The notes under the pieces were generated by a model. It was not told where the DNA came from. It saw only the letters and a list, made by a program, of their open reading frames with translations, and did not search any database. Source: Botryllus schlosseri (Eukaryota). Taken from it: 64,000 bases of DNA. This document shows positions 16,300 to 57,761 of this stretch, piece by piece. The stretch covers positions 2,916,001 to 2,980,000 of the forward strand of contig CM119373.1 of the NCBI GenBank assembly GCA_051294905.1, given 5' to 3'. The position numbers were made by a program, and so were the translations under genes. How positions within the stretch are numbered: the first letter of the stretch is position 1; each line of letters opens with the position of its first letter.

Positions 16300-16603
16300 T
16301 CACAATCTTTTCCGGAACTTCATCTCCGAGAAGCGGAGGAGGTTGTAGGTATCACCCCACCAAATCCCCTTGACGCCTGTTTTGCGGAAGTTTCCATTCA
16401 GATTGCTCTCGGCGCAGTTCTTGTACCACCAGCCTCCTTCGCGAAAAGAAGCGCAATTCAATGACGGATGAGAATCGTGATCCGCGTCCTTCGTTGAGAA
16501 TTGTTGATTGTTGTGATATGAGAGACCATCGTAGGTTGCATTCCCGGAGAATCCGGATACGTTCAGTCTGTAGTTGTCGGATCCGGGGCCGATGCCGAAG
16601 GAG
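16300..16603 (-). CDS. Gene A last exon, FReD C-terminal (P) subdomain
   Basis: AG acceptor at 16604-16605; SFGIGPGSDNYRL...FSTKDADHD...GGWWYKNCAESNLNG...FSEMKFRKRL*. Confidence 0.92.
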
Positions 16604-19600
16604 CTGAAAATGAGAACCGCTGAGTGAATTTCGAATGATTCCAAAATGTTAAAATCCTTGCCTTGTTTTTCGCTCGAATAGTTTGTATTTCAGCCTGCAT
16701 GCGTAATATCATAAGTCTATAAGGATTATATTACGGATCATTGGGGTTCTTTCCTAGCAATAATTTTATTCGCCAACCATTATATTGGCAAATATACGGT
16801 GAATACAGGTATTAAACGCTAAAACAGTGACCCTAACGATGATAGAAGTTGGCATATCTCTATGCTCCTGTTGATTTTGTCGCAATCTGGCGTTATAGCC
16901 CTGCGTGTGCGTTGTGAGAAATACAAGATTGATGAAATGCACCGAAATGATAATGCCAACGACTCATATTCACCTGTATTTAGCAACCCAATAAACCTCT
17001 TTTTTCGTGATCATTTTGATTTTCATCTCCATATCCCCTGTCTTGGTCAATTGATGCAATGCTTCCACGCCTGAAAGAAAGTAGAGCGCCAGATGATTAC
17101 AAACTTACATACGTACGAGTTCTTGACGTGGGCGCAGTGACAAGATGATGAAACAAATTCTCCAGTAGTGTTCACTATAAACGCGCTCACACTGTCAATT
17201 TACTTTACCATAGATCTGCTAGATCACGACCAATGGATATGACACCTCTTCGCTCCTCGTGATGTGTGTCTGGGCGCACTTCATGAGATAATACAAAAGT
17301 TGTATATGAAAAGTCGTACCCAACCAATGATCTCCTTGCAAATCGCCGAATCCTTTCACGTAATAATTCCAACCTCTGTCGAAATCAACGTCTCCGTTCA
17401 TTCTTCGCTGGAAAACCTTTCATGAAAATGGAAAGGATTTAATTTTTTCTGCAACAATCGCGCATTCAACTCACGGTCCAGTTTCCTCCATCGTCAGTTA
17501 CGTCACAGAATACATTCGTGGTTCCGACTTCCGGTATGTCTAATTTAAACACACCCCCAGAGTCATTACGTGCTAATGCTGATTGGGCGTCCTCACAACT
17601 TCTCACAAGACCTAGAAATAATAGAATTCGTTTCATAATCGTCAATCGACGAATGACGTCAATCATTCCAGCCTTGTTAATGTCAGATTGGCGGCAGTGA
17701 ACAGCGTGATACTTGTCAAGTTATTGTTAGTGCATTCATTAATTTATGCATATTAACGAAACATGGGATAGGCTCAACCCATCTATTTTCTCTGTCTGCA
17801 ATATCTGTGACTGAATTTACAATCATGGATGTTCGTTACAACGGTTGGCATTTCAACTGTTCAGCCAAATACTGTGTCTTGTAATAATTTCTGATTAAAA
17901 TTTGTGATACTCATTTCAGTTAATCTACGAATTATTTTGGTGCTATATTTAGACTTTATTTTACGAGGGAGAGTTGGAGACTGAAGCCAGATATGCTCAA
18001 ATATCAGTATAAGTCTGATGGTGAATTGACAAGAATGCAGCGTTGGCGAAGGCAGCAGTTCATAAAATATCATCCTCTATAAGCATTGCTTCAATCTGCA
18101 ACGACAATGTCCATGATTAGCCGATTACCACTGCTAAAGATATCTGGCTGACAGTGCATCGCACGAGCTCGGAGGGCCCAAAATTATCTCGTGAATTAAC
18201 ATAAATTATAGAGTATTTTTTTTGGAAATTTAGGCCACTTTTTCAAAAATTTTCGCGCTGAATGCGCTATTGAATATTGCCGAATATATTGATTATTGGG
18301 TACGCATCCCCAACGAAAATACCTAGATTTTATAGAAATGGAGACTTCGATGTCGGACATTACTGTGTCTCGACGCACCAAGACATATGAAGTTATAGGC
18401 CATGTAACATGCGACTCCGAGAAGTGTGCCAGAACAATCAAGAGCGAGAAGAGCTTGACCGAGACGTAATGCCTTTGTGCAGACCGAAAACTTCGAGATA
18501 TATACAATATACTTATATGTTGTCCATAGGCGGCTGAATGGCTGGCGTCGAATATTCATGTCCTGACGATCTGAACCCCACAGGACAAAAAATGGCATCC
18601 CGCAGGGGAAAATTATTTGCCAGTAAAGCAACACCAATTTGAAATCGTGTGTGCCTTTTGGTTTTGGCGATTTCCATATCTTTTGACATAACAGATATAG
18701 GCGGTCACGAAATAGCATAATGTAACGAATTCAATATACCAACGGGTCCGCCGGAAGATCCTTAATACTTATTTAGTTAGGGGTCTTACCTTATCCAACA
18801 CACCTCACTCAGCTCTACCGTTAAATCAGATTACGTTAACAAAGATGGGATAAAAAATTGAGAGCAAAATATATGCAATTCCAGATCATATCGACCTATT
18901 CAAACATGAATTATATAAAAGTTTCGCGCTACGCTCGTTTAGTCGACATAAGGCGACGCAATAAACAGTAGACCCGATGTAGCTGATAAGTAGCGGGGGA
19001 AGGCGTACAGGCTCAGGAGGGCTGAGATGGTTCCGGGGGCTTTATTTGGTTTATCACCCTGTGGGGGGGGCAAGACCAAGCTTTTTTGGGGGGGAGGATA
19101 ACGTAGTGCTTTCAAGGTCTTGGTGGGGAATGAAGGCTCGGAATAAATCTGAAGTGGGGAATGAAGACAAAAAGGTTGGAAACCACTGGTGTAGATGGTA
19201 CGACGCAAATATGACATTTAAAATAGAAACATAATTAGGATTATGATTATTGCCATTGTTGACACTTGGAAGTTTCAGCACAGATTAAACTCATACCGAG
19301 TTCAAGAAACATTATTTCTGTCAGGTGGTTTCATGCCTCCCCTCAGATGCCTCGTCGCCCGGTAACCCCAAAATCAGACTCGAATTTTGCATTTTGCAGT
19401 TTGTCATCGCGACGCAACAATGTCGTCTGCTCAGGAGAAAGTGATCAGCTGCGACGAGAGTGAGAGTAATCAATGGGCAGCGCGAAAACGAGCAATGCTC
19501 CTGTGTATCGTCACAGATATACATTGCGATATTAATGACGGATGTCCATAATTTCTTCTAGTCTACTTTTAGTCTAACAACGTAAGCAATTTAGTTCATA

Positions 19601-21883
19601 CCGATTACTTGGTGACTTAAAATTGACTCGAAAATTTTGCTTCGAGTCACGAGTCAATCCACATTTCTGAAACGCCAAGTCAAGACACGTCAAGTCATGA
19701 CTCGATCCGTACCAACACTAATTCACGGTAATTTATGGATAGAGAGGAAGCGATTTATCAAACCTACTCAAGTTAGACTCAGTCAAGTATTGTGGCAGTC
19801 AGCGACTCATCTCCTTCGCATAGCTCAAAATCTAGAAGCAATATAGCCTATACTTACGGCTGCAATTTTTGCCATAATATCCTTCGGCGCAGTTACACGA
19901 ATAGTACGGAGGAGTGAGCTTACTAAGACATGTTCCGTTATGTTGACAGACATTCGGATGGTGTTCGCAGTAATTTTCTAGATGGAAACGAAGCGATGTG
20001 CCAAACCTTCTGAATTTATACACAGCCAAGTGTTGTGGCTAGGGTTGCATTTTATATTGATTTTTGTTTTAAATGCAACTCTAGTTATGGCAGTAAGAGA
20101 CTTATTTCCTGAGCATTGTTCAAAAATTAGAAGCGATATACTTACTGCTGTATAGTTTTTTCCATAGTATACGTCGGTGCAATTACACGTATAGTACGGT
20201 TGAGTGTCATTCTTTAGGCATGTTCCGTTGTGTTGACAGACATTCCGGATGTGTTCACAGTAATTTTTTATATAGAAACGAAGCGATGTGTCGATCATAC
20301 TGAATTCATACGCCACCAAGTGCTATGGCAGTGAGTGAATATACTTCTTGGCATAGCTCAAGAATTAGAAACGATATATTCATCTCTGCAGTTTTTTTCC
20401 ATAATATCCATCGGTGCAATTACACGAATGTGTAATGAATGACAGACATTATTCAGACATGCTCCGTTATGTTGATAGACATTCGGATGGTGTTCACAGT
20501 AATTATATAGAAAATATATAGAAATGTAATGTAAAACTGGCATTGTATTTTTTGTGGTCACAGAAATTACATATTTGATTTTTTCCATTCCACATCGTTC
20601 ATACTGTCTTTACGTGCTAATGATGAATACTCCAATGTTAGACTCGTCTCGAAGCCCAATTCCCGAATCAGATTCGTCCCTGATTGGAAGCAATATACTT
20701 ACGGCTGCAGTTTTTTCCATAATTTCCGTCGGTGCAATCACACGTATAGTACGGATGGGTGTCATTATTCAGACATGCCCCTCCATGTTGGCAGGCATTC
20801 GGATGGTGTTCACAATATCCCTCTGCGTGGAAAGGAAGCGATAACTGTTTCAAACCTACTCACGCTGTAGACACAACAAAGTATTGTGGGAACGAGCTTG
20901 TCTTCGTCTGGACATCACATACATCAGAGGTTCTCCACCGGGGGTCCGTGGACCCCTATGGGTCAGTGAAGCATTTTCAGGGGGTCCGCGAAGCCTCAAA
21001 ATTTATAAAATGGCTGATAACCTACTTGGTATTTTTTATTTAGAGAAAACACAAGGCCGTCTCGCTTCATAACTGCTAAAACTTCATGACTCACATAAAC
21101 AGAATGGCCGTCGGAGATGTAATATCCTACCATGCAAACACATGTGAATTGCTAAATTGTCAATAGCCAACTGATACAAACGTATGGTTGTTAGGTTCAG
21201 CGATGTTTTAGAAACTAATTGTTTGCAAAATTCATATTCTCATGTGATAGGCATAACCACCAACTTCCAGATGAGCTGCTAGATAAAAGTGACTCTACTG
21301 GATGTTAAGTTCACTAAAAACTGTTCCTCACTTTTGGCGTCACATATCTAGCGATCATGCCCAAAGGAGGTGTCGAAAGCGTTACGCTTTATGATTACAA
21401 TAGCAACCGCCTCTCTTTGCGGAAATGGATTTTCGGCACTCGTTCATATCGGATAGACGGCGCGGATTTTAAAGACCCGAGCGCGTACTTCAAGACATTT
21501 AGCTACATACTTCGCTTTGAACTAATAAAATTATTCCTAATTTCTACATACAGAGGAGGCTATGATGTTATTTTGTTGCTGTTTATCACCAGCCTATAGT
21601 TGATATTTGCACAGGACAGATGCCGGTTGCTCGATAATGGATCTAAATTTGAACTAAAACTTTGGGGGTCCGCGGGGGTCCGTGAGGGTCCAGAAGGGGT
21701 CCGCGAAGACAAAAAGGTTGAGAACCACTGACATAGATCAATAATTAGAAACGATATACTTACGGCTACAGTTTCTTCCATAATATCCGTCGGTGCAATT
21801 GCACGTATAGTAGGGTTTGGTGTCATTATTCAGACATGTTCCGTTATGTTGACAGGGATGCTGATGATAATTGCAGTAGTCGC
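16300..21883 (-). CDS. Gene A: multi-exon EGF-repeat + fibrinogen C-terminal domain (FReD) protein; 5' leader unresolved
   Basis: Exons 21764-21883, 20703-20822, 19858-19977 (EGF) and 17475-17611, 17320-17416, 16974-17070, 16300-16603 (FReD) have GT-AG boundaries and join in frame. FReD motifs: VFCD..GGNWTVFQRR, GFGD..GDHWLG, FSTKDADHD, GGWWY, SNLNG, SEMK. Confidence 0.9.
16974..17070 (-). CDS. Gene A FReD exon 3
   Basis: 97 bp, phase 1-2, (G)VEALHQLTKTGDMEMKIKMITKKEVYWVAKY, AG/GTGAAT boundaries. Confidence 0.88.
17320..17416 (-). CDS. Gene A FReD exon 2
   Basis: 97 bp, phase 0-1, VFQRRMNGDVDFDRGWNYYVKGFGDLQGDHWLG; 58-bp intron upstream. Confidence 0.9.
17475..17611 (-). CDS. Gene A FReD exon 1
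   Basis: 137 bp, phase 1-0, LVRSCEDAQ...SGGVFKL...VFCDVTDDGGNWT, donor GTGAGT. Confidence 0.9.
19858..19977 (-). CDS. Gene A EGF-like exon
   Basis: 120 bp, phase 1-1, NYCEHHPNVCQHNGTCLSKLTPPYYSCNCAEGYYGKNCS, six Cys, TAG/GTAAGT. Confidence 0.88.
20146..20267 (-). pseudogene. Decayed EGF pseudo-exon (gene A)
   Basis: EGF homology, but the acceptor AG reads AA and a 2-bp insertion removes the 6th Cys (GKNYTAV). Confidence 0.75.
20384..20506 (-). pseudogene. Decayed EGF pseudo-exon (gene A)
   Basis: EGF homology with 2nd Cys changed to Tyr, an internal frameshift and donor GT changed to AT. Confidence 0.75.
20703..20822 (-). CDS. Gene A EGF-like exon
   Basis: 120 bp, phase 1-1, GYCEHHPNACQHGGACLNNDTHPYYTCDCTDGNYGKNCS, CAG/GTAAGT. 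Confidence 0.88.
20925..21730. mobile_element. hAT MITE in an EGF intron of gene A
   Basis: CAG(A/T)GGTTCTC TIRs, GGGGTCCGCG subterminal repeats, TSD ACATACAT/ACATAGAT; same family as 36094-37242. Confidence 0.85.
21764..21883 (-). CDS. Gene A EGF-like exon
   Basis: 120 bp, phase 1-1, DYCNYHQHPCQHNGTCLNNDTKPYYTCNCTDGYYGRNCS, CAG/GTAAGT. Confidence 0.88.
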
Positions 21884-23974: not shown

Positions 23975-24293
23975 TGGTTTGTTTTGTTTTATTGACACAC
24001 ATAATTGGCGCTTAACAACTTGGTCAAATGCGCTCGCACAGTTAATGTCATAAGGTATTTTTTACGCTGGTCTTGCGCCCTTTTTCCGGTCCATTTTCTG
24101 CCATCTTTCAAGAGTTCGGCTCTTTCTTCCTCTGAGCTTTTCAATGCGATGTATTTACAGCGGGATCGGCGATGAGGAGCCCAGATAAACCTCCGACACA
24201 TAGAGAGTAGAGACATGGCAGAGCCGAGACTCGAACCAGCAACCATTAGTGTCGTGACTGCAGTGTTTAACCAAATGCACCACTCGCTTACTC
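23975..24293 (-). mobile_element. tRNA-derived SINE
   Basis: B box GGTTCGAGTC, shared SINE core, AATAAAAACAAAAC tail. Confidence 0.7.
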
Positions 24294-25789
24294 ATTGACT
24301 TGACTTGTAGTTGCTGGTTGTCGGCTGTCACCATGATATTGTTTTTCCATGATTGGTTTGGGAGTATCAGATATCCCACGATTATGATATCCTGATTATG
24401 GAGTATCGACAATGTCTAACATATTATCTGAAATTTTTGCTTGATCATGAATACATGAGTTTGGAATTCTGATTATTTTTAGCGTCTGCAGAATTATTCA
24501 TATTACATGTGTTACAGTAACTGTGATACTCAACCATTACTATAACCCGCGGAACACTTAGGCTAATCAGCAAGCCTTCGCGGAACTCAAAATTTTTCGT
24601 TGAGTCAGAAAAACATAAATCTAACATTACATATCTAACTAGACATCTTATACATTACTACAGATTGCTGGTGCATAAACTGAACTGTACATCAACTTCG
24701 GGAGTTGAGCTGGAAAATATTACTGATTTTAGTCAACCCAGCAATAATAATTCACTTAAGAATTTGATACTACCCGTTTTCTCGTCCGATGTCAAGGAAC
24801 CTCTAGTGTTCCGTGGAACACGGGTTAAGAATCACTGCTCTAGAATTTTCAAGCTAGTTTTCTTTTGGTTGAATTAGACACAACAAGAACATCTGCGAAT
24901 AATTATAATGGTTCAAGTATCTCATGTATTTCCTGTGATATTCGCGACATTGATGCCCAGATTGGGTCGAAAACTCTTTCAATTAGTCACGTCTGCTCCA
25001 AAAATGTGTGTGTTTGCTTTTCACCAACCGGTATAGCCAAAATACTTGGATTACCCTGAAACCATAATTCGTGTACAGGCGCTATATATATATATATAAG
25101 TTTTTACAGACCTTCGAGATCTCCGATAGCATTTTCATGGATCGAATATGCATATGATTTCGGGAAACTTACTGATGTATAAATCTTACACTTTCGTTGG
25201 GGCTGTAGAGGGCTTCATTATTAATTATGGCAATATCGCCATAATTTGACTCTGTCGCGGCCAAACGTTGAGTATAAACGAAAACTAGTCATAACGAACA
25301 ACTCACCCGAAGAACGCGAAACTGTCAAAATCAACGCAGTCGCTTGCAAAATTATCGAGAGCAGTGGAAACGCAACCATACTGCCTGACTATAGTATTCA
25401 ATATAAGTTTACCTTCATAAATCATTTCTGGCTCAATAACAACGTGGAACGAGGAAGTTGCGCTTTGGGCATAATTTTGGTACTACGTGAGAGATGCCCT
25501 GGTATGAACTGAGTCAACTGACTAACATTTGTTCCCCGTGTTTTTTTAAGTTGACATCTGACGGCTGTGCAAGTGTGCATGTTGGGCTGTCAATCATATA
25601 CACATCGCATCATATACAACTACATTGGTTACATTTCCTCGTCAGCGCTGAGAATTTGAGACAATAGTCATCACTTCATGCTCTTGTGATATAATTACTA
25701 TTAACACTGATTTTTGTACATAAAAACCCGATTTTATTTTTTTATGGGTTATGTTAAAAAGCCTTTGAAAGCACTTGCTTTCATATTAA

Positions 25790-27168: not shown

Positions 27169-30100
27169 TGACAGTTCTACATAAATGAAAGATATTTGGT
27201 ATTTTTCCGCACTTTGTGACAATGCTGTGGGATGATCACGACTCAGCAGACAGGCTCTGTACTACATGTTTCGTATGCTGAGGTTTCAAAGCTGCCACAG
27301 CAGGAAATGGTATCAAAATATAGTTTTTGTGGATGGATTGAATCTTAGATGCAAATAACGTATATTTCAGTACTCGAAAGAATGATATCTCACTACTCGA
27401 CTCGAATCATTAGAATTAATACTTGGTTTATAGATTCAAAAACTCGAATCATCGTGTCCAACCTTATTCCCTATCATTCAGTTTTCATCATGCAATACTG
27501 AAGCATGCTAAAAGTGTAGATTATTTACCATTGGATCTTTGGCGAACTCCACTAAACATTTGTCAAAAATGAACCTTTCCCAATGGGGAATTCGCAATAT
27601 ATTATGCTGCCAAAGTCGTATGTGAAGCATTGGTAGTTTTAAAAGTCATTAAATAGTCAAAGCCGTATATTTTGTTCTTGCCAACTGTAATTTCTGGTCA
27701 CTAAAATCGCTTTTCGGCTACAATTACATCCTGGTTCGGATACAAGGCATCGGATACAGAATATCGTCGACGTCAGCAATTTCACTATTCATAGTTTACC
27801 TACAGCTGAAATAATATGAGTTAATGTCAACAATGTTGCAATATCGTTCCATGACTAATGTTGTAGCTGGTCTACATGACTGTATTACCAACAGAGGTGG
27901 TGAAAGTAGTCATTGTTCGTACCGTAGCAGAAGTAGAATTACCGCTGTAAATTCCTACCGCCTACCCGATTTCAAAGGGGGCGTTTTTTTGAGACGCCGG
28001 ATACCTTTAGTGGTCAATTGAAGGCGCCACTCTCAAAATTGCAAAAGTACATGACACCACAACCCTTATATACGGGTGTGAATATACTATACACCTATAG
28101 CACGCGAAGTCATAACCTACCTCTGACTTATACCGCGCAATAAATAGAGTAGACAACATTTTATTCCAAATTTTGCATGCATGTAGAAACGAAGGAAGGT
28201 ATGCACGTAGCCGCGATATAATTCTAATTCAGATAACCTGTTGAGTAGATGTGAAAGTGGTAAATAAACACAACCACTTGCTGAGGTATTGCGAGTAGGA
28301 AAAACCTATTTAAGTACTCTCGAAAGTAGAACAAATATGCATAACACCATGTAGCAAAAAATTAGTTGAACCAATGTTTTCATATTTCATACACCATATT
28401 CCTCGATAAAGCATGTTTCATGCATTTTTAGCCTCTAGTATCGCTTCAAAATCTCATTTTACGCTTTAACTTCCCGCACAACGTTTATTGAATTACATAT
28501 TAACTGTAACTTCACATTGATACATCACTCAATTCATAGTAGCTGGTTGTTAGTAACAATCATCGTCTCAGTCTCAGTTAGTCAGCGTTGGCTACAACCA
28601 GCAATTTCAAATTCATTTTCGTTTTGTTCCGATAATGCACCGATTGTGGATCTAGTGTGTATCATTAATGTCAGGATCACAACTGTAATCTGCGTGGTGG
28701 CTGTCTTTGGTATATCTATGTGGTCTGTATATCAGTTTGAAACAAGTTAAGTAGATAATACAAATAGAAGTAAGTTTTTTTTACACTTATTAACTTTACT
28801 TTTGCATGGAAATTGTAAAGAAAGATCAAACTGGTCATTTCGTGTAATCGGCGAAACATGCCGATGAAATATGGATGGATGGCGAAGGGGAGATCGGCAT
28901 TTAATGTCATTTGCTATTAAATAATCTGAAGGGAAATTCGAAACCTTATAGATGACTATTATTTCTATATGGCTGAGATTCCAAGGGTCAGAATACCTAG
29001 TGACTAGACATTGCATATCCTTCGAAGCCATCTCCTCTTAAGAAAATGTTCCGTATTGCAGTAAGTTTTCATTGCCCAAATTATGAGGCAAGAAAGTTCC
29101 AGGAGACTCGACACTCGACAGGGCTTAAAGATACCGAAAATGACTCCAATCACGAATCCAAGATCTCTGATATAGATATAAATTTAGAACCACACATTCT
29201 GAACCAACACGAAATTGATGATTTAGTTGGGACCCACTAAATCAAATGCGGTGTGCCAGAAATTTCGCAAATGGAAGAAATAACGCGTCACGTCGGTATC
29301 ACACAGATCGATGGAATGACATATACCTTTTCCGTGAGAATATTCTAGCTGCAGTTTCAATGATGGCCGTTCGGCTATGCTGACGCTGTATCTTCGATCA
29401 GCTGATTGCTATTTGCTAGTTACAATACACTTTACATATCGGATTAACCATGGCTGAAACTCCTGACAGATCTTGGACGCATTACGAAACCCGGAATTTA
29501 ATTATCAGCGGCGTAAGTGAAATTAGTTTGGATGGTAGAAAAAGCAGCTGAGACTTCTTGGTGTTAATACTTATTAACGATTTGCAGTTCTTATGTCGAA
29601 GGACAGCTAAAATCAGATGCAATTGCTTGCTAATATGTTATCCCAACAATCGCTTGTCCTGAATACCAGCAATATTTTATTTTAACGTTTTCAATTCAGT
29701 CCTGCATGTTTCAGGTCAAAACGGGTTGTTTGATTGAATGGCCGCTACAAGTCGTCTCGGCTCCTTCCTGTCGAGTCATTTAGTCTCAATCTGGTGATAT
29801 GTTGAAATTATTAATGAGGAAGTAAGCCGAAAACGTCATCGCGAAATCTTCGCCCGCCTAGTTCGGCCAAGTCACGGTCGGATTACGCCTGGTCATGGAA
29901 ACACGATCGACATGTAAAACGCATGCGTCATGGCCTTTGGGTCGTACGTGTACCGTTCTTGGAAACGAAGTAAATCAAGCGACCAAGTAGTTATACGGCA
30001 AATTCAAGCCGTTTCTTCGCTTAATTCTTATAAAAGTGAGCCGAACGAAACTGCTTTACTAAGCGGAATCGACTGTATATGTAAGGCGATGAAATCAAAA

Positions 30101-31199
30101 TGACTGTCCACTTTGGTTTGATGACTTGCAGCACAATACTGTGTTGGTAACATGCCTCGGCAAATCACTCATTTCGCATATATGGACGTCAACTTGCAGC
30201 TAACGACTGTAATCAATCATACCTTCTCGAATTTCTGATTCCAACTTCCTGCAAACGCAGCGGCGTCTTCTTTGCTTCTTTGTTCACTATACGTCGACGG
30301 TAGAATACAGCATATAGCTCGAATATAATCTGTTATGTTTTAGTATGCAGGCCCTATCAGTATGTACGAGTATATGTTTTATTTCCGCGTTGGTATGACC
30401 ATTCGTAGAGTGGAATATGGGTGAATTAAAAGTCATTCGCACATCAAAATCGTTGACGTAGTTATTACGGAAATAGGACATCAGGTGGTTTCATCTTTTG
30501 TGCTCCCAGCGGCAACGATTTCGAAGGAGTGTTCAGTTTAATGTGGATTCAGCAGTGTCTGTCGCCATAAAATCACCTTGCTATCGCATTCATACTCCTA
30601 GTCCAGATGTAGCCTTTCTAGTTTATTTCATGTTCAAATATAACAATGGCTGTAAAGATGTTCAAATAAATGCTCTGAAGCTTTGAAAATGTTCTTATGT
30701 ATATCCAACTTATTTTGAATATCGGCTGAATGTATTGGGGTTCTCGGCCAAGGTGTAAGATATCGGTTTTATCGGTATCGACCCAAAAATCCAATATCTA
30801 TTGGGCTCTATAGAGTATACCAAAGATTATTTGCTGCTATTTTTGGTTCGAATGTCCTGCAGCGATAAAGTGCCTTAAACTCCCATTGGAAGTCGGATAT
30901 TTCCGTTGTAGATGTCCCTGGCACTAACATAATAACAGAAAGAGAAGTCAAATGGATGGATGAACTTTACCAGAACTACAAACGGACATAAATATGAAGA
31001 TTAAATTTGTAGCAAAGAATACCTTTGAATTGTAATTTTTTTATATATTTGGACCAGTGTCGCAAATTGAAATTGGTTTGTGAGGGACATTTTTTTCGAT
31101 TTGAACAAAATGATTATAATTTTTTTAATTCATACCAAAATGTTCATCAATTCCTGCTACAGGCGATTTTCTTCTTCTTCTAGTCATACCCCTACTGCA

Positions 31200-31442
31200 C
31201 ACAGCAAAGAGATATGGCTGTTTAAGGTTGTCTCTGGAACTGTATCATACCATTGGTGTTTCAATTACGATTTGTGAGAGGAGTTTCTCAAAATGATAAA
31301 GTATTTACGTTCTACGATGAATGATGATTGGCTATCAGTTTCAAGGATTCTTTCTATAGAAAGAGACTACGTTCAAAGACATGATTTTGTAGATGTTATC
31401 GCTGATTTTGCTTCGGCGAAAGCTCGAAAGGTTCAATTTTGA
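31200..31442 (+). pseudogene. Degenerate hAT transposase C-terminus
   Basis: TIGVSITICERSFSK / YLRSTMNDDWLS..LSIERDYVQ..DVIADFASAKARKVQF*. Confidence 0.75.
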
Positions 31443-31589
31443 TCTTTTATTCACCTAATACGTTTGTTCTCCATTTATTGGCCCTTAATGCTGAAACAGC
31501 GAGGCTTCTTTCTCAAGCAATATAGAACTTCTGAGACGCGGCACATTATTTATAATTGGGGCAGCATTTGCTTCAATGCCACTGACGGT

Positions 31590-31795
31590 ATCCATGAGAG
31601 TTTTCGACTCCGATGGACACCAACACCAGACTGATATTCTTTCTCGTGATTCCGCAGCTTCCAACTGATAGCACGGCCCAAGTAAGAAGCAGCCTAGATA
31701 AACCAGTAACACTTAGTGAGGGATTCTGGCATCGACCTCAGTCACCTACTGGTGTTGCAGCTGTGAATCATGCCACTACGCTATCTCGCCACACA
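31590..31795 (-). mobile_element. tRNA-derived SINE (paralog of 8060-8292)
   Basis: Head GTGGCGAGATAGCGTAGTGG. Confidence 0.65.
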
Positions 31796-49599: not shown

Positions 49600-49668
49600 T
49601 CACAATCTTTTCCGCCGGAACTTCATCTCCGAGAATCGCAGGAGGTTGGGAGGTTGATTCCAATCCCA
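49600..49668 (-). CDS. Gene B terminal FReD segment (WDWNQPPNLLRFSEMKFRRKRL*), coding only if the 485-nt insertion is spliced out
   Basis: Homologous to the gene A C-terminus; preceded by AAG in phase 0. Confidence 0.55.
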   Translation of the reverse strand, partial: WDWNQPPNLLRFSEMKFRRKRL

Positions 49669-52600
49669 CTTTAACGAACTATATTGTTCACGCCATTTTA
49701 ATATTTGAGCAATAGGGAGTGTTGTGAACTTACTTAATTCCCTGAAGTGAAAACCCGATAAGACCTTTGTTATTCGTGTGAATATAGATAAGAGCAATAA
49801 ATCGTACGATGTTTTGTGCATATATTCTCTCGTGGCTATAATTTATATACGCATGTAATACCACGTAGACAGTCATTCGGTTCATGATATTTCGCTGATT
49901 CGGAAGTCCGTTGTATTGCCGTACGTGATTCAATAAAGTTACAAGTCGTGGAGACGGAAACAAAATATATTCGTCAGTGTGATCCATCGAATACGTGTGC
50001 AATAGACAGGCTTCGTGGTACGTCAGCCAACAAGGCCGTACGGCGCGGTTACGCCGGTCCGTCAAAGGAAGAAACACGCAGCGAATTGTAAACGCAACCT
50101 TCTTGGAGTCAGATATACAATTATACAACTACAACATTCGCTCTGCGTTATACCCACCACCAAATTCCCTTGCCGTCTGTTTTGCGGAAGTTTCCATTCA
50201 GATTGCTCCAGCCACAGTCCTCATACCACCAGCCTCCTTCGCGAAAAGAAGCGCAATTCAATGACGAATGAGAATCGTGATCCGCGTCCTTCGTTGAGAA
50301 TTGTTGATTGTTGTTCCATGTGAGACCGTCGTTGGTTGCATTCCCGGAATATCCGGATACGTGCAGTCTGTACTTGTCGGATCCGGGTCCGATGCTGAAG
50401 GAGCTGGAAAATGAGAACCGCTGAGTGAATTTCGAATGATTCCAAAATGTTAAAATCCTGGCCTTGTTTTTCGCTCGAATAGTTTGTATTTCAGCCTGCA
50501 TGCGTAATATCAATAAGGATTATACTTCGGATCATTGGGGTTCTATCCTAGCAATACTTTTATTCGCCAACCATGAAATTGGCAAAAATACCGTGATTTA
50601 CCGGTTGTATACAGGTATTGTTACTAAAACAGTGGCCCCAATGACGATATAAGTAGGCATATCTCTATGCTCCCGTTGATTTAGTCGCAATCTGGCGTTA
50701 TAGCCTTGCGTGTGCGTTGTGAGAAATACAAGATTGATGAAATGCACCGAAATGATAATGCCAACGACTCAGATTCACCTGTATTTAGCATCCCAATAAA
50801 CCTCTTTTTTCGTGATCATTTTGATTTTCATCTCCATATCCCCTGTCTTGGTCAATTGATGCAATGCTTCCAGGCCTGGAAGAAAGTAGATTGCCAGATG
50901 ATTACAAACTAACATACGTGCAGGAGCCCTTGACGTGGGCGCAGTGACAAGATGATGAAACAAATACTCCAGCAGTGTACACTCTAAACGCGCTCACACT
51001 CCCAATTTACTTTACCATAGATCTGCTAGATCAGAGGTCTCAAACACGCAGCTCGCGGGCCGCATTTTGTCCGGCCCGAGACGACATTCTAGATTTTTAT
51101 TAATTTGACAATATATAAGGGTCACATGTATCTTTTCAGGTTATAAAGTGAAAATTCTCTCTACAATTGCTCTGAAAGCCTGACACTATTCATCAAACGT
51201 CACTATCACATCAATTGCAAACGCTCCCATGTAGTGGAAGATTGATTATTTCGTCACATTTTCACTTCATGTTGATAAAACCTGTTCCTTAGACGATTCG
51301 TGACTAAAATTTGTGAGTTGGACTTGGACGTGACCTTTCCTAAAATTACTCGGACTCGGGCTGACTCGATGGAAAAATGAAAAAGACCCGATTGGACTCG
51401 GAGTGACTCGGAATGCCGTGAACTTGCTAGAACCACGGACGCAACAAACTAATCGCGTGTCATGAGAATAGTAGATCAGACGGTCACAGCTTGGTATTTC
51501 GCTAACTAAGCGAGTCGTTATTGCAACCAGTGGCAATCTGTTAGTTACATCTTGGGTCGCTTAGTCCTCGAACCATGTTATTAAGGCCACTTCAAGGTAC
51601 CGAGTACCGTAGTGATACGCTCCAACGATGGGCCGTTCGGCGTTCCGACATTTCTATTACTAGGACACATCCATTAATATATTTTTTATATTTAAATATT
51701 TTTCCGCTCCTATTTTCGAAGAAATTTGACCATGAGATTAATAATAACCACTTATCAGGAGTATAGGCAACCTAGGCTACCCGAGTCCTGGATTGGAACT
51801 ACACTGCCCAACCCAAAAATGTTGTGATCTCAGATCAGTCTCTATTATCAATCTGTTAAATTCGAAATATCAAAGGCGATAGCTTTTTTGATGACATCAT
51901 ACATTTGTCCGCTCATATGTGTCTATATCTTATAATTATTATATATAACGAGTACAACAAGAATCCTATTCAATTAGTTATAAATGTGATAATTTTTTCG
52001 TGCCAGGCCTAAATTGATACAAGAGTAAATCACATTTTGACGATGTGTGTTTACTCGCAGCCTGCTGGATCGGCTCACTTTCAATAGGACAATTCCATCC
52101 CGTCAAATATGGTCTGAAAGACATATAATACCCCTACAGATGCTGCGGCCCGCGGCGTCGTCAAAACTGGAAAACTGGCCCGCGAGCACATTTGAGTTTA
52201 AGACCTCTGTGCTAGATCACGATCAGTGGATATGGCATCTCTTCGCTCCTCGTGATGTATGTCTGGGCGCACTTCATGAGATAATGGAAAAGTTATATAT
52301 GAAAAGTCGTACCCAACCAATGATCTCCTTGAATATCGCCGAATCTTTTCACGTAATCATTCCAATCTCTGTCGAAATCAACGTCTCCGTTCATTCTTCG
52401 CTGGAAAACCTTTCATGAAAATGGAAATAATAATCAATTTTTTTCTGCAACAATCGCGCAGTGAACTCACGGTCCAGTTTCCACCATCGTCAGTCACGTC
52501 ACAGAATACACTCGTGATTCCGACTTCCGGTATGTCTAATTTAAACACACCCCCAGAGTCATTACGTGCTAATGCTGATTGGGCGTCCTCACAACTTCTC

Positions 52601-55600
52601 ACAAGACCTAGAAATAATAGAATTCGTATCATAATCGTCAATCGACGAATGACGTCAATCTTTCCAGCTTTGAAATGTCAGATTGGCGGCAGTGAACAGC
52701 GTGATACTTGTCAAGTTACTAGTGCTCTGAACGTGATGCGTATACTACCGGTACGTTGATATTTTAATGCTTAACCGCGTAAGAATGTGGGTACCCCTCA
52801 CCGAATCTTGACGTGTTGTGGTTATGGCTTGACATCATTTGTTAGTGCACTCATTAATGTATGTATATTAACGAAACATGAGATATGCTCAACCCATCTA
52901 TTTTCTCTGTTTGCAATATCTGTGACTGAATTTACAATCATGGATGTTCCTTACAACGGATTGCAATTCAACTGCTCAGCCAAATACTGTATCTTGTAAT
53001 AATTTCTGATTAAAATTCGTGATACTCATTTCAGTTAATCTACGACAGAGGTCTCAAACTCAAATGTGCTCGCGGGCCAATTTTCCAGTTTTGACGACGC
53101 CGCGGGCCGCAGCTTCAACAGAAGTATTCCATGTCTTTCAAAGTAGGCCGTATTTGACGGGATGAAATTGTCGTATTGAAAGTGAGCCAATCCAACAGAC
53201 TGACATTCAACACTCATCATAAAAATGGGATTTACTGTTGTATGAATTTAGGTCTGGCATAGAAAAATTATCACATTTATAACTATTTGAATGGAAGTTT
53301 TGTTGTATTTGATATATAATTATTATAAGATATAGACGCCATGTGAGCGGACAATTATATAATGTTATCGTAAAAGCTATCACGTTATAATTTTGCAGCG
53401 AATATGAATATTTTGAATTTAACAGATTGATAATAGAGATTGATCTGCTATCACAGCATTTGGGGTTTGGCAGTGTAGCCCAATCCGGGATTCGGATATA
53501 CTCCTGATAAGCTCATGGTCAAATACCTTCGAATATTGGAGCAGAAAAACAACAATACAAATCTATTAATGAATGTGTCATAAATATCGGAAGGCGGATC
53601 AACATCGTTACATCGTTGGAGCGTACCACTACGGTATACTCGGTACCTTTAAGTGGCATTAATAACATGGTTTAGCGACCCAAGATGTAACTAACAGATT
53701 GCCAATGGTTGCCATAACTACTTGCTTAGTTAGCGAAATGCCAAGCTGCGACCTTCTGATCTATTACTATCCCATGACACGTGAATAGTTTGTTGCGTCC
53801 ATGGTTCTAACCAATTCACAGATTTCCGAGTCCATCCGAGTCCACTCCGGTCATTTTCATTTGGCCATCGAGTCAGCCCGAGTCTGAGTAATTCTAATAA
53901 AGGTCGCGTCAATGTCTAACTCAAAAATTTCAGTCACGAATCGTCCAAGCATAGTGCTGTAAACGACTATCGTCTAAGCCTAAGGGTTGGGGTTTATCAT
54001 CATGAATTGGAAATGTTGCGAAATAGGGAATCTCTCCTGCATGGTCGCGGATAGCGAAGTTAGATGAATAGTTTTAGGCTATCGAAGCAGTTTAAGAGGA
54101 AATTTTCCCTTTACAACTTGAAAAGAGATATGAGGCACTTATATGTTGTAAAATTATTGAAATTCTGAAATGTCGCGGGCCGCATGAAATGCTCTGGCGG
54201 GCCGCGTGTTTGAGACCTGTGATCTACGAGTTATATCGTTGTTATATTTAGCCTTTATTTTACGACGGAGAGTTGGAGACTGAACCCAGATATGCTCAAA
54301 TAACAGTCTAAGTCTGATGGTGAATTGAAAAGAATGCAGCGTTGGCGAAGGCAGCAGTTCATAAAATATCGTCCTCCAAGCATTTCTTCAATCTGCTTTG
54401 ACAACGTCCATGATCAGTCGATTATCACTGCTAAAGATATCTGGCTGACAGTACATCGCACGATTATGAGGCCAGTGGAATTACCCAGATATCAGAGACC
54501 AAGCCAAGCCTTAAACGTGGGTTTTATCATTCACAATTGGGCTCTGAATGAAGTTAGCGTCCCACACAGTGAGCTGGCTGCTGATGGTAGCTCCGCGTTG
54601 CCTTGACCCTATTCTTCCCGCCAAGGCACAGACTTGTTGGATAAACCACATTTTGTCTGCATTTCAATTCAAGAACAGGAATAGTTGTATGAAACTTGTC
54701 CCGGAGAGAACATCTCTCTGTATCTCGGCTGGAATCAATGGGTCGTTTTATGCATTTTATATGACTGTCTGTCTGTATTTTACCGGTATTTTGAATGTAT
54801 GCTCGTGGTGGATTTTATTATAGCTAACGCGATAATGAAAATATATTGTCAAATTGTGATGTCTTGCAACATAAGGTTGATATATCTGCCAGAAAGCAAC
54901 AAAGATTCAGGTAGCGATAGGGTTACTAGCGGTTGTAAGCTGCAGTAGCGAGAGGGTTAATGAACGGCAACTGAAGGGTTAATGAGTCTGCAGCTGAAGT
55001 GCAAAAAGTGTATCTTTTGAAGCATCATTTCGACATCGAATGCGCAAAATACGCCGGCAGATCGCTTACCATTTTGTTGACTCGGTAGTACGGCTAAGTG
55101 TAAGTAAACTGACATTTTTCATTATGATGACAGGTATTTGGGTGGCGTTCACAGTAATTTACTGTATGGAACAAATGATCTGTCAAACTTACTGAATCTA
55201 TACACAGCCAAGTATTGTTGGAATTGAGCGTGTCTTATTCTCGTCATAGCTCAATATTCACAAGAAATATGGGCTACGTCGATGCAATCGCACGTATAGT
55301 ACGGACGATTGTCATTATTCATGCATTTACCTCCATATCGACATGTATTCTGGTGGTGTGCACAATATCTCTCTGTGTGGCAGTGAGTGAGTCATTTTCT
55401 GACCATAGCTCAAGAATTAGGATCGTTTTACTTACCACTGCAGTTTTTCCCGTAGTATCCGCCGGTGCAATTACACGTATAGTACGGACGAGTGACATTA
55501 TTCAGACATTTACCTCCATGTTGACAGGGATTCTCGTGGTGTGCACAATATTGTTCTGAACGGAAACAAAGCGATAACTGGGCCATACGTACTGAATTTA

Positions 55601-57761
55601 TACACGGCAGGTAGAGGGACATGGCATTGAGCGAGTCTTATTCTGACCATAGCTTAATAATTAGAAGCGTGTTACGCTTACCAGTGCAGTTCTTTCCATA
55701 ATATCCGTCGGTGCAATTGCACGTATAGTACGGACGGGTGACATTATTCAGACATTGTCCTCCATGTTGACAGGGATTCTGGTGGTGTGCACAATATTGT
55801 TCTGTGTGGAAACGAAGCGATTACTGTGCCATAAATACTGAATTTAGGCACGGCCAAGTGTAAGGCAGTGAGCGAGTCTCATTCTGGTCATATTTTAAGA
55901 ATTAGGATCGATTTACTTACCACTGCAGTTTTTTCCATAATATCCGTCAGTGCAATTGCACGTGAAGTACGGACGAGTGACATTATTCAGACATTTTCCT
56001 TCGTGTTGGCAGGGATTCTGGTGGTGTTCACAATATCTCTCTGTATGCAAACGACGCGTATACGTACTGAATTTGGACACGGTCAAGTGTCGTGGCAATA
56101 ACCAAGTCTTATTCTGGCCATAGCTTAAGAATTAGAAGCATTATACTTAACAGTGGAGTGTTTTATAGGGATGTTGTGAACGTGAGGCTCACATTCGCGT
56201 TCTGTATGTGAACCTCAGAATTTTAGAGGTTCACGTTCAGAAACGAATCTCGGTAGGTTCTGCACTGTGAACCTTTTTCATACATTACAATTTTCACTTC
56301 ATTTTAACATCTTTGGTTGAAATTTATTGCATTTCAACTGCGGGCCACTCTATGCATGGCGCTGACAGTAAAAAAAATCAACACTAAATGAGCATGCACC
56401 TTGACAATCTCAAAAATTTTGCTTGCTTTGTTAGAAGAGTTTGCTCGAAATATCCAGCTTTCCGTATGTGAATATTTAGCGACTCTCTGCTTTGAGCTTG
56501 AACCGCACAACATCACGAGCGAAATACACTACTAGTAGACGTAGTCAGCGAATGATGCTATTCAGCCTATCAATGAAATTGATATCGTTGACTGATGAAA
56601 CAAATCTAACAGGCGTACGAGGTCAATAGCGGTTGCAAAAATAGAAAGCCGTTTTACACTCTGCTCAATACCAACGAGCAATACTCCTACGCCGAATACA
56701 TTGTCCGGTCTGGCCTGGACCGTTAAAACGTAAGCTTATATTCCCTTACAAGTCCTCGTCGAAATTGTTGACAAAGCGACGGAAGATTTTGATTTAATGG
56801 GATTGTTATATCATTTGATTGCCCGAGTTGATACATTCGGCTACGTTCAAAACGTCAATATGTATTTCAGCATTGTGGTATTATGTTACCCGAGCCGTCG
56901 CTAGGTATCATGACCAATTTTACATTAATATAAGCTAGGGTTACCATACGTCCTCTTTTAAGAGGATTTGTCCTCTTCTTTGACTTTTTTGAAAGTGTCC
57001 TCGGAGGACGTCCTTTTCTCCTCTTTTTTGAGATTTTGTCCTCTTTTCTAAAATCTAGGTCAGATTTAGAGCAAATTGCGAATGATATGCAGTAAAGTAG
57101 CACAGAAGTAACGCAACGGATCACAAAGTGGGTAAAATTTACCGGTTTTTGAGAATTTTTCTCAACGGATCACAAAGTGGGTAAAATTTACCGGTTTTTC
57201 AGAATTCTTCTCCGGTTTTAGCAAGTCTTAAATTCTGGAAAAGTGTCCTCTTTTTAGATTTCCAAAATATGGTAATCCTAATATAGGCTATGACTTCACT
57301 GAAATGTAGTGTTGGAATTAGCAATATGACGTCAGGTGATGTAATGAGGTTCACGTTCGAGTTCACACGAACCTGAGCCTTTCAGAGGTTCACACCGTTC
57401 CTAGCCTTTTCCATAATATCCATCGGTGCAATTGCACGTATAGTAGCCTCCGGACGACTGACAATATTCAGACATTGTCCTCCATGTTGACAGGGATTCT
57501 GGTGTTGTGCACAATATTGTTCTCAACGGAGACAAAGCGAAAACTGGGCCATGCTTACTGAATTCATACACGGCAGGGTGTCGTGGCCGTGAGCGAGTCA
57601 TATTCCGGCCATAGCTTAAGAAACAGAAGCGGTATACTTGCCACTGCAGTTCTTTCCATAATATCCGTCGGTGCAATTGCACGTATAGTACGGTTTAGTG
57701 TCATTATTCAGACATGTTCCGATATGTTGACAGGGATTCGGGTGATAATTGCAGTAGCCGC
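49600..57761 (-). CDS. Gene B: paralogous EGF-repeat + FReD protein; last exon split by an insertion; 5' leader unresolved
   Basis: EGF exons 57642-57761 (GC donor), 55921-56040, 55682-55801, 55436-55555; FReD exons 52471-52607, 52313-52409, 50779-50875, 50154-50403 plus 49600-49668; phases compatible. Confidence 0.85.
49670..50152. mobile_element. Solo-LTR-like insertion in the last exon of gene B
   Basis: 483 bp; ends TTTAACG...CGTTATA (each one change from TGTAACG...CGTTACA); 5-bp TSD CCCAC; internal AATAAA; absent in gene A. Confidence 0.65.
50154..50403 (-). CDS. Gene B FReD exon 4 (P subdomain)
   Basis: SFSIGPGSDKYRL...GGWWYEDCGWSNLNGNFRKTDGKGIWWW; runs to a stop at 50148 if unspliced. 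Confidence 0.88.
50779..50875 (-). CDS. Gene B FReD exon 3
   Basis: 97 bp, (G)LEALHQLTKTGDMEMKIKMITKKEVYWDAKY. Confidence 0.88.
51032..52209. mobile_element. hAT MITE in a gene B intron
   Basis: CAGAGGTCT TIRs; perfect TSD TGCTAGAT; empty site in gene A at 17217-17224. Confidence 0.92.
52313..52409 (-). CDS. Gene B FReD exon 2
   Basis: 97 bp, VFQRRMNGDVDFDRDWNDYVKRFGDIQGDHWLG. Confidence 0.9.
52471..52607 (-). CDS. Gene B FReD exon 1
   Basis: 137 bp, LVRSCEDAQ...VFCDVTDDGGNWT. Confidence 0.9.
53046..54221. mobile_element. hAT MITE of the same family, inverted relative to 51032-52209
   Basis: TSD ATCTACGA; empty site in gene A at 17923-17930. Confidence 0.92.
55070..55161 (-). pseudogene. 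Decayed EGF pseudo-exon (gene B)
   Basis: NYCERHPNTCHHNEKCQFTYT*PYY: in-frame stop and 3' deletion. Confidence 0.7.
55270..55372 (-). pseudogene. Truncated EGF pseudo-exon (gene B)
   Basis: RYCAHHQNTCRYGGKCMNNDNRPYYTCDCID; the GYYGKNC end and the donor are deleted. Confidence 0.7.
55436..55555 (-). CDS. Gene B EGF-like exon
   Basis: 120 bp, phase 1-1, QYCAHHENPCQHGGKCLNNVTRPYYTCNCTGGYYGKNCS. Confidence 0.88.
55682..55801 (-). CDS. Gene B EGF-like exon
   Basis: 120 bp, phase 1-1, QYCAHHQNPCQHGGQCLNNVTRPYYTCNCTDGYYGKNCT, CAG/GTAAGC. Confidence 0.88.
55921..56040 (-). CDS. Gene B EGF-like exon
   Basis: 120 bp, phase 1-1, RYCEHHQNPCQHEGKCLNNVTRPYFTCNCTDGYYGKNCS. Confidence 0.88.
56166..57403. 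mobile_element. hAT-like element inserted into an EGF exon; nested MITE at 56936-57280
   Basis: TAGGGATGTTGTGAAC...GTTCACACCGTTCCTA ends; nested TAGGGTTACCATA element with TSD ATATAAGC/ATATAGGC. Confidence 0.8.
57404..57521 (-). pseudogene. EGF pseudo-exon (gene B) broken by a frameshift and a transposon
   Basis: 5-bp insertion GAGGC after RP; the 3' end is displaced to ~56150-56165 by element 56166-57403. Confidence 0.75.
57642..57761 (-). CDS. Gene B first EGF-like exon (GC donor)
   Basis: 120 bp, GYCNYHPNPCQHIGTCLNNDTKPYYTCNCTDGYYGKNCS; donor GCAAGT. Confidence 0.8.

Follow-up and report, generated by a model that had tools for sequence, protein, structure and literature searches.

Does the array of EGF and fibrinogen-related exons in this part of the Botryllus schlosseri genome represent a diversifying family of immune or allorecognition molecules, as a preliminary description of the DNA had suggested, or is it one section of a larger gene family with its usual gains and losses? 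The window analyzed here, i.e., the whole stretch of 64 kb, shows what appears to be the normal turnover of a large family of lectin-like genes and does not resemble a special self/non-self locus. Taken as a whole, the explanation that we regard as probable, albeit with clear reserve, is that this region belongs to a lineage-specific tandem family of fibrinogen-related domain (FReD) genes undergoing birth-and-death, in which copy A encodes a secreted lectin and copy B is decaying.

Two EGF-FReD genes on the minus strand

Two paralogs, A and B, both encoded on the minus strand, contain three and four open EGF exons of 120 nt in phase 1-1, respectively, and all seven have kept their six Cys residues. 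They are followed by four FReD exons, the first three with 137, 97, and 97 nt and the fourth with 304 nt in A. The EGF exons 1 to 3 of A are located at 21764..21883 (Pfam EGF, E 2.2e-6), 20703..20822, and 19858..19977 (E 5e-6), each with AG/GT borders, and its FReD exons 1 to 3 at 17475..17611, 17320..17416, and 16974..17070, with the introns on either side of exons 2 and 3 being spliced in reads of the family. FReD exon 4 including the stop codon (16300..16603) carries the calcium site and the pocket loops and matches the FIBCD1 structure 4m7f with E 3.4e-18. In B, the EGF exons 1 to 4 lie at 57642..57761 (with the donor GC instead of GT), 55921..56040 (E 3.4e-6), 55682..55801 (E 8.1e-8), and 55436..55555 (E 4.2e-5), and the FReD exons at 52471..52607, 52313..52409, 50779..50875, and, for the part of exon 4 preceding an insertion, 50157..50403. 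With regard to the curated cut-off of 22 bits for Fibrinogen_C (PF00147), exon 4 scores 64.6 bits in A (E 1.5e-17) and 58 bits in B (E 1.6e-15), exon 2 of A scores 34.2 bits, and exon 1 of A covers positions 3-44 of the profile below the cut-off (E 0.04). Both bare EGF exons that were tried against Pfam EGF, EGF1 of A and EGF3 of B, exceeded the cut-off. The two proposed paralogs with three and four EGF modules before a FReD are therefore borne out by exon structure and Pfam.

The Pfam scan covered all 338 stop-to-stop frames of at least 55 aa in the window and gave no match to collagen, FN3, Ig, or C-type lectin families, although short exons can escape such a scan, as FReD exon 1 did in both copies (no match at E 0.01). 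The absence of collagen and FN3 parts assumed before thus holds for these frames, with the restriction that a very short collagen exon could escape. No further FReD or EGF cluster besides A and B is present within the 64 kb.

A candidate signal-peptide exon of A was found at 25307..25379 of the minus strand, comprising 24 codons plus one base and a phase-1 donor GTGAGT. Among the 32 candidates with an ATG and a phase-1 donor on the two strands of the window, it ranks first in hydrophobicity, and it is in frame with all later exons; it lies outside the region that A has in common with B, has no counterpart elsewhere in the window, and B is without a signal exon there. Together, the eight exons of A stay in frame over 1068 coding bases with canonical AG/GT sites, and the predicted product of 355 aa consists of a signal peptide, three EGF modules, and a complete FReD including the last EMK-x-R strand, which B lacks unless a putative cryptic splice removes its insertion. 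The EGF region and the C-terminal FReD of A are joined in frame on paper, with no read across the EGF-FReD joint among the joints listed. Upstream of A, at 23.2-23.7 kb, some stretches look like exons but were not counted with the gene, as they have no Pfam match, are missing in B, and show almost no RNA depth.

Copy B is most likely decaying

FReD exon 4 of B is interrupted by an insertion of 508 bp (49649..50156), which is single-copy within the window and brings a stop codon after three codons. It severs the last strand of the domain, so that the EMKFR strand and the original stop are displaced to 49600..49648 of the minus strand, the Pfam match stops at position 201 of 221, and four columns out of the 50 with the strongest FReD conservation are lost. 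Moreover, all 53 aligned relatives have a Gly that is replaced by Arg in exon 2 of B. A donor/acceptor pair that would restore the frame around the insertion exists on paper. B is most likely a decaying copy, and the view of A and B as two working variants is not supported given the insertion with its early stop, the Gly-to-Arg exchange, and the lost conserved columns.

Turnover of the EGF exons

Besides the open EGF exons, five decayed copies are present on the minus strand. The two in A, both with approximate ends, are located at 20352..20510 (acceptor AG absent, frameshift, donor lost) and 20114..20300 (acceptor AG now AA, sixth Cys lost). The three in B comprise 57403..57553, which has a frameshift and is split by a 1.2-kb insertion with the remainder near 56118-56163, and the truncated copies 55275..55390 and 55085..55190, the latter with an in-frame stop. 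The length of the stalk therefore alters via birth and death of exons. In the exon tree, EGF1 of A groups with EGF1 of B (support 0.996), while B2, B3, and B4 cluster with two of the decayed copies of B (0.892), and this cluster adjoins A2 (0.924); internal EGF exons of A and B are 15-26% different. The suggestion that EGF number varies at the locus is thus confirmed, by exon duplication and decay that took place separately in each copy. The lesions of B, the five decayed EGF copies, and the candidate signal exon of A had been overlooked in the preliminary description.

The open EGF exons are under purifying selection, with a median pairwise dN/dS of 0.24 and values below 0.5 in 20 of 21 pairs (seven open exons, the pairs not being independent). 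Each contains two to four N-glycan sequons, and three of the seven modules have an O-fucose-type motif C-x4-S/T-C.

An older duplication with probably homogenized patches

The 3' flank of unit A (5..15750) is non-coding and shares nine collinear blocks with that of unit B (27254..34052), from 5-632/27254-27873 through 15577-15750/33875-34052; in B, about 15 kb of B-only sequence follow before the gene. A hidden gene in the duplicated flanks was rejected, as tblastx gave no consistent frame and no Pfam family scored above the cut-off. The offset between A and B is 27.2 kb at the left end, has grown to 33.3 kb where the genes have their 3' ends, and amounts to 35.9 kb by EGF1. Non-coding columns differ in 493 of 3457 cases (14.3%) in the flanks and in 178 of 2652 (6.7%) in the gene body, a contrast with Fisher p 1.4e-21. 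Across 15750-15959, the divergence drops in a step from 15.4% to 2.6%, and two patches of the gene body are only about 7% apart. The tandem duplication is older, with flanks 14% apart, and we infer that the gene-body patches were homogenized later by gene conversion or unequal crossing-over.

Reads of four of 24 runs (X13, X17, X6, X1) were mapped onto copy A only (15700-27300). X1 presumably consists of DNA contigs, and its summed contig depth is not copy number. Homology to both window edges had been taken as a sign of further units. At the left edge it stands with the nine collinear blocks, but at the right edge it consists of a single 129-bp block with 77% identity (25991-26118/63874-63999), and the bin holding this block has a contig depth in X1 of 3365 versus 20-24 in the two preceding bins, which is repeat level. 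The right edge as proof of more units is thus ruled out, and the figure of about 37 kb for unit B, whose right-edge support was this one repeat block, is without real support.

It is very improbable that unit B is a second haplotype wrongly assembled in tandem. A-identical contigs and one B-like contig each have the single-haplotype depth of 8-12 in X1, as such an artefact would predict. However, A and B are 14.3% apart in the flanks and 15-26% apart in internal EGF exons, the depth is about double in A-only stretches (20.9 at 19738-19755 and 19.8 at 25121-25788), and it reaches 29.7 at 22552 in a stretch common to A and B, which, noisy as these depths are, suggests three or more copies. A mis-assembled haplotype, named before as a finding that would overturn the tandem array, is thus unlikely on the grounds of flank and EGF exon divergence and of X1 depth.

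The calcium site is kept, the ficolin pocket is not

When A was aligned to FIBCD1, the calcium ligands Asp393 and Asp395 and the bridge Cys401-Cys414 corresponded to identical residues; the D-A-D-H-D motif and both Cys align with D391-D395, C401, and C414 in A, and the same applies to B (residue roles as given in the accessible part of PMC3908420). In the acetyl pocket, Tyr405 is replaced by Arg and His415 by Ala in A and Gly in B, the Tyr431 loop is four residues shorter, and the fourth position (Trp/Tyr443) falls in a poorly aligned stretch. Judged from the alignment, the ficolin acetyl pocket is lost, with the calcium site kept.

The dN/dS between A and B is 0.82 overall, 1.11 in exons 1-3, and 0.73 in exon 4, where dS is raised, all values coming from two sequences, one of them damaged, and thus having low power. 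Positive selection (dN>dS) on the binding surface or P region was not found between A and B. Amino-acid differences are more frequent in exon 4 (15/82) than in exons 1-3 (8/109; Fisher p 0.025), and a comparison limited to residues from the DGL motif on gives 10/57 versus 13/134 (p 0.15). Around the pocket Cys, four of five residues differ, with seven changes in 18 bases. For this cluster, whose window was picked post hoc, permutation yields p values of 0.005 over the coding stretch and 0.027 within exon 4, and at the protein level 0.10 and 0.17. The surface had been expected to vary as in a diversifying family; the excess of differences in exon 4 agrees with this, but diversifying selection is not supported (exon 4 dN/dS 0.73; p 0.15). 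At the 50 FReD columns with the strongest conservation, copy A is nowhere the only one to deviate. It has two unusual residues found in none of 53 relatives, Tyr for Asp/Glu and Val for Leu/Asn, which, together with the dN/dS of 1.11 in exons 1-3, suggest that A may be relaxed too.

Relatives and known FReD systems

The best matches to exon 4 are three unnamed single-exon open frames with 58-66% identity (P0122, P0125, P0203), whereas named relatives reach 57% or less in word-index and full HMMER searches, and the nearest full-length relatives are two unnamed collagen-FReD, ficolin-like proteins (51% and 47%). Besides ficolins, the nearest solved structures include ANGPTL6, tenascins, and MFAP4. 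In a tree built from 59 FReD sequences, namely A and B, 12 chosen ones, and the 45 highest-ranking full-length sequences among 374 matches, A and B group with P0122, P0125, and P0203 at 0.79, and a wider group including the two collagen-FReD proteins has a support of 0.945, other nodes being weak. None of the 16 proteins that the EGF profile matched has a FReD among its listed families. An EGF module straight before the FReD, as here, occurs in a "ficolin-3-like" protein of Lytechinus pictus (P0114), in P0098 of Rhopilema esculentum, and in the unnamed P0192 and P0243. Unlike A and B, these have one EGF each plus spacer, PAN, or collagen parts; P0192 and P0243 show 42-45% FReD identity, and none of the four groups directly with A and B in the tree.

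Ficolins, tachylectin-5A, and FIBCD1 (PDB 2j0g, 1jc9, 4m7f) are alike in the FReD fold as judged by sequence, the calcium Asp residues, and the pocket disulfide, but they have a collagen stalk or membrane anchor instead of an EGF stalk, and for the collagen-like stalk of ficolins no match exists in the 338 frames of at least 55 aa. Tenascins likewise carry EGF repeats N-terminal of the FReD, but with FN3 repeats in between; here no FN3 exon was found, and the EGF modules have 40 residues with one exon each. Snail FREPs have one or two IgSF domains before the fibrinogen (FBG) domain, of which no Ig match was seen in the same 338 frames; weak copies could escape, since FREP IgSF domains need custom profiles (PMC7588048, accessible part). 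According to the same part of this source, one of the 73 FReD genes of Biomphalaria glabrata is a FReM with an EGF-like region and a C-terminal FBG domain. FReM resembles the genes predicted here in having an N-terminal region, an EGF part, a single C-terminal fibrinogen domain, and an expanded FReD set around it, and its genome copy is without the final EMK-type motif, like copy B. The snail has one FReM, whereas here there are two or more copies in tandem, and their exons turn over; the likeness is one of predicted architecture. In our classification, the locus has an architecture like that of FReM and forms part of an expanded family under birth-and-death. No paper describing a tandem FReD gene with several EGF modules in a tunicate came up in the literature searched, which consists mostly of papers accessible without subscription.

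Signs of many related FReD exons, some of them transcribed

The RNA runs X13 and X17, whose tissues are unstated, were sampled to 6% and 13%, respectively. In X13, the three FReD introns are spliced by 38, 160, and 67 reads. At 17035 (318 of 345 X13 reads), 17050 (284 of 326), and 16385 (42 of 44), letters found in neither A nor B predominate, while the letter of A at 17365 is present in no more than 4 of the 532 X13 reads and in 0 of 40 X17 reads, and the letter common to A and B at 17368 in 0 of 40 X17 reads. Reads matching neither copy come from other individuals and may represent alleles rather than paralogs. The EGF positions 19918 and 21768 and the bins 24988-25761 with the signal exon have zero reads in both RNA runs at this sampling, and among the joints listed for the runs on the A region there is none of the signal exon, of an EGF exon, or between EGF and FReD of A or B; we infer the EGF-to-FReD splice in both copies. 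In X1, 17-60 different contigs cover single bases of FReD exons 1-3 versus 3-6 in intron 2, which suggests that there are numerous related FReD exons. A multi-copy, transcribed FReD family is thus supported by the many variant contigs and the spliced variant reads, in which paralogs and alleles are indistinguishable.

What the family may do

The history favored here would have begun with a tandem duplication of the whole unit, followed by partial homogenization of gene-body patches through gene conversion or unequal crossing-over; EGF exons would have been gained and decayed separately in each copy, and B damaged and left to decay. The predicted product of A would be secreted, with three N-glycosylated EGF modules holding out one calcium-binding FReD head. 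As no oligomerizing part was found and the acetyl pocket is replaced, it may be a lectin with a ligand other than that of ficolins, putatively acting in pattern recognition or adhesion in a limited tissue or stage. An immune role is plausible.

Other readings have to be weighed against this one. It is unlikely that the FReD exons are expressed by themselves, beginning at a short hydrophobic in-frame start before exon 1, with the EGF array as a left-over stalk. In both copies, the exon-1 acceptor is indeed preceded at 24 bases by an in-frame ATG with eight hydrophobic codons, and the zero EGF reads would fit, but these codons coincide with the pyrimidine tract that belongs to a canonical phase-1 acceptor. 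Since a similar in-frame ATG lies upstream of both EGF1 acceptors, this feature is not special. Furthermore, the region between the last EGF exon and FReD exon 1 holds only three weak signal-exon candidates, none common to A and B, and the purifying selection on the EGF exons speaks against a left-over stalk. Quite unlikely, too, is the assumption that both copies are silent relics with the working members elsewhere, for which the near absence of the A letter at 17365 and of the A/B letter at 17368, the overall dN/dS of 0.82, and the two unusual residues of A could be cited; against it, A is open over its entire coding length with all splice sites intact and deviates alone at no highly conserved column, and the reads come from only two partly sampled libraries of unstated tissue. 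A structural protein or signaling modulator (of matrix, tunic, or egg coat, or a Notch-type partner), comparable to the FReDs of tenascin, MFAP4, or angiopoietin-like proteins, would agree with the pocket not being kept, the stalk predicted to be heavily glycosylated, the O-fucose-type motifs, and ANGPTL6, tenascins, and MFAP4 among the nearest structures. We consider it improbable in view of the apparently high copy number and the turnover, which suit recognition families better, and of the ficolin-like nearest full-length relatives.

The allorecognition role raised in the preliminary description, i.e., a multi-allelic self marker under balancing selection like v-Themis, whose product belongs to the egg coat and is linked to self-sterility, is highly improbable. 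Both FReD and EGF are used in ascidian self-recognition, as v-Themis is fibrinogen-like and HrVC70 has 12 EGF repeats (PMC9265791, accessible part), and the cluster of differences by the pocket Cys would suit such a marker. According to the same part, v-Themis shares with this locus the fibrinogen-like domain and the existence of several related loci, is multi-allelic, and is located in the first intron of the PKD-like s-Themis on the other strand. Here, no PKD/REJ-type, s-Themis-like partner gene was detected on the other strand among the 338 frames of at least 55 aa, where short exons can escape; moreover, dN is not above dS, B is damaged, and a large dispersed family is unlike a single determinant.

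Beyond turnover in a lectin-like family, a more far-reaching possibility, to which we give only tentative credit, is that the locus works like a construction kit, in which phase 1-1 glycosylated EGF arrays grow and decay independently and join different heads, here a FReD, while short pocket segments are exchanged among the heads by micro-conversion, with a large set of expressed FReD genes as the source. In its boldest form, the insertion of B would be partly spliced out and would add a 27-residue loop beside the pocket. If stalks are indeed traded among lectin heads and pocket residues converted, this would be a germ-line diversification system for innate recognition, and an invertebrate chordate would have a repertoire of secreted, non-acetyl-binding recognition proteins differing between individuals. 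As it stands, the locus is a small, clear case of turnover in a lectin-like family, with unit duplication, patchy homogenization, stalk-exon turnover, and the loss of one copy within 60 kb, and it belongs to an apparently large expressed FReD subfamily without the ficolin pocket, the named relatives of which reach at most 57% identity in our searches.

Structure of the Two Genes

Self-comparison revealed two collinear units in the window, each carrying on the minus strand EGF exons followed by four exons of a fibrinogen-related domain (FReD), and the two paralogs of the preliminary description, copies A and B, were largely correctly recognized. Copy A consists of three EGF exons (A1-A3; 21883-21764, 20822-20703, and 19977-19858) and the FReD exons 17611-17475, 17416-17320, 17070-16974, and 16603-16300, all flanked by AG/GT. 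Together with a candidate signal exon (25379-25307, minus strand), which has the top hydrophobicity among 32 ATG-to-phase-1-donor candidates in the window, it has 355 codons in open frame. The EGF exons of copy B are located at 57761-57642 (GC donor), 56040-55921, 55801-55682, and 55555-55436, and its FReD exons at 52607-52471, 52409-52313, 50875-50779, and from 50403 onward. The only Pfam families above cut-off among all 338 frames of at least 55 aa, a length at which short exons are missed, were EGF, Fibrinogen_C, and one zf-RVT fragment (E 3.5e-6), the latter in the 3' fragment of a non-LTR retroelement (39132-39587, plus strand).

Two exon-like minus-strand stretches upstream of copy A, 23212-23289 and 23612-23670, have good splice signals; they have no Pfam match and almost no RNA, are not present in B, and may derive from a gene fragment that was captured or has decayed. 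A plus-strand frame (22265-22440 in A, 58118-58408 in B) with a short hydrophobic run at its start and a possible phase-1 donor is kept in both copies, with an in-frame 3-bp indel between them; zero RNA reads were found there, and its conservation is not above that of the surrounding DNA.

Copy B is probably a dying copy. A 508-bp insertion (50156-49649) takes the place of a few codons in its exon 4; the reading frame meets a stop codon three codons into the inserted DNA, and the last FReD strand is thereby displaced. An alignment with 57 relatives shows Arg in copy B where all 53 sequences not gapped at that position have Gly, and four further columns among the 50 best kept are missing from B; copy A departs by itself at none of these 50, and four departures are common to both. 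Nine donor/acceptor pairs would in theory restore the frame, and two of these have a fair pyrimidine tract. No signal exon for copy B was found in 57762-64000, and it may lie outside the window, because this stretch consists mostly of repeats.

Duplication History and Stalk Turnover

Units A and B are more diverged in their non-coding flanks (493 of 3457 columns) than in the non-coding part of the gene body (178 of 2652; p 1.4e-21), and the divergence steps from 15.4% to 2.6% at ~15.9 kb. Internal EGF exons are 74-85% alike and EGF1 91%. The EGF exon tree places A1 with B1 (0.996) and unites five of the B copies (0.892), with A2 as their neighbour (0.924). From these patterns we infer an older unit duplication, followed at a later date by homogenisation of two patches, and EGF exons that would have duplicated independently within the stalk of each copy. 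A DNA profile search found 12 EGF copies and one fragment; seven are open, and the five others are decayed, having lost splice sites or acquired frameshifts, truncations, or a stop. This supports the earlier proposal that stalk length (EGF number) varies at the locus, here by exon turnover. The EGF exons are under purifying selection (median dN/dS 0.24; 20 of 21 pairs <0.5), and their 2-4 N-glycan sequons each suggest a glycosylated spacer. Homology had been noted at both window edges; it is real on the left, but on the right comprises 129 bp within a repeat.

About 15 kb (34052-49258) are found in unit B only, where A/B divergence falls from 15% to <3%, and a 207-bp high-copy repeat (15756-15962) sits at the same point in A. 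Two related 1.2-kb insertions lie in the introns of copy B, one at 51028-52209 and one at 53046-54221, and similar elements occur at 5739-7248 and 47372-48805. We take the two intron insertions to be hAT-like because they end in short inverted repeats and are flanked by 8-bp duplications of the target site; the same sites in A are empty. Further repeats are a 2.7-kb element (60484-63208) with ~680-bp terminal inverted repeats (94.7%), a palindromic stretch (61171-61462), and an interior matching 40700-41782 at 76%, as well as a 219-bp tandem repeat (2609-3182, 2.6 copies), relatives of which lie in inverted orientation at 1876-2374 and 3244-3405.

Divergence of the Binding Surface

Copies A and B differ in 23 of 191 comparable FReD residues, 8/109 in exons 1-3 and 15/82 in exon 4 (p 0.025). 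Synonymous distance also rises in exon 4, from 0.032 to 0.127, dN/dS is 1.11 in exons 1-3 and 0.73 in exon 4, and the excess from the DGL motif on is not significant (10/57 vs. 13/134, p 0.15). One cluster near the pocket cysteine has 7 of 18 bases changed (permutation p 0.005 and 0.027; at residue level p 0.10 and 0.17; window picked post hoc) and may reflect gene conversion over a short tract. Overall dN/dS is 0.82, and two sequences, one of them damaged, cannot show selection for a diversifying binding surface as previously suggested.

The nearest solved structures to the FReD head are FIBCD1, ANGPTL6, and L-ficolin. The alignment, in the FIBCD1 numbering of PMC3908420, retains both calcium ligands (Asp393 and Asp395) as well as the Cys401-Cys414 bridge. 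Tyr405 is aligned with Arg and His415 with Ala or Gly, and four residues are missing from the Tyr431 loop; the predicted head is therefore not a canonical acetyl-binding ficolin.

Expression and Family Size

Four public runs were aligned to 15700-27300 at a likeness of at least 86%. Among the joints listed, 38, 160, and 67 reads of the RNA run X13 span the three FReD introns, and five reads of the RNA run X17 span one. The bulk of FReD reads comes from neither A nor B as assembled: among the differences listed for X13, 528 of 532 reads are unlike A at 17365, letters absent from both copies occur in 318/345 reads at 17035, 284/326 at 17050, 42/44 at 16385, and 47/53 at 16298, and three other letters appear in 34 of the 38 reads that cross the last FReD junction. 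At 17368, all 40 reads of X17 match neither copy. At 19918 (A3), 21768 (A1), and the signal-exon bins, zero reads were found in the ~6% of X13 and ~13% of X17 that were read. This does not prove that the expressed genes lack EGF, because EGF exons of distant paralogs fall under the likeness limit; EGF-FReD joining in copies A and B, like any expression of these two copies, is a prediction. A short dispersed repeat (24098-24289; further copies near 10202-10321 and 26828-26925), presumably a tRNA-derived SINE, has very high RNA depth in both runs (~400-650 per mate direction).

In X1, presumed to be a DNA run, 17-60 variant contigs cover single bases of FReD exons 1-3 (summed depth 370-3100), 2-23 cover exon 4, and 3-6 cover intron 2 (summed depth 30-64), single-haplotype contigs having a depth of 8-12. 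Run X6 gave a similar exon vs. intron contrast at lower depth. Summed contig depth is not copy number, and we read these contigs only as many related exons and few copies of intron 2. Spliced variant reads and the variant contigs on exons 1-3 suggest an expanded, expressed FReD family, whose variants may be paralogs or alleles.

Relation to Known FReD Proteins

Exon 4 is most similar to three unnamed single-exon frames (58-66%), and the S-N-F junction of the RNA reads recurs in two of them. The best full-length FReD relatives are unnamed collagen-FReD proteins (51 and 47%), and a Styela clava "MFAP4-like" protein reaches 46%. The database proteins P0114 (Lytechinus pictus "ficolin-3-like"), P0098 (Rhopilema esculentum), P0192, and P0243 likewise have EGF directly before FReD, one EGF each, and the domain order predicted here is also that of snail FReM (PMC7588048). 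The predicted architecture is already known and copies A and B are new members; no description of a tunicate gene of the multi-EGF FReD type was found in the literature searched.

Because Botryllus ficolin-like transcripts go up in rejection, according to PMC2527998, an immune role is plausible for ascidian FReDs generally, which does not bear on copies A and B. v-Themis is defined, according to PMC9265791, by its location within s-Themis and many alleles, features not known for copies A and B; nothing supports the suggested allorecognition role. The preliminary interpretation was half right: the locus does belong to a FReD family that is apparently expanded and expressed and whose stalks turn over, but copy B is probably dying and allorecognition is without support.
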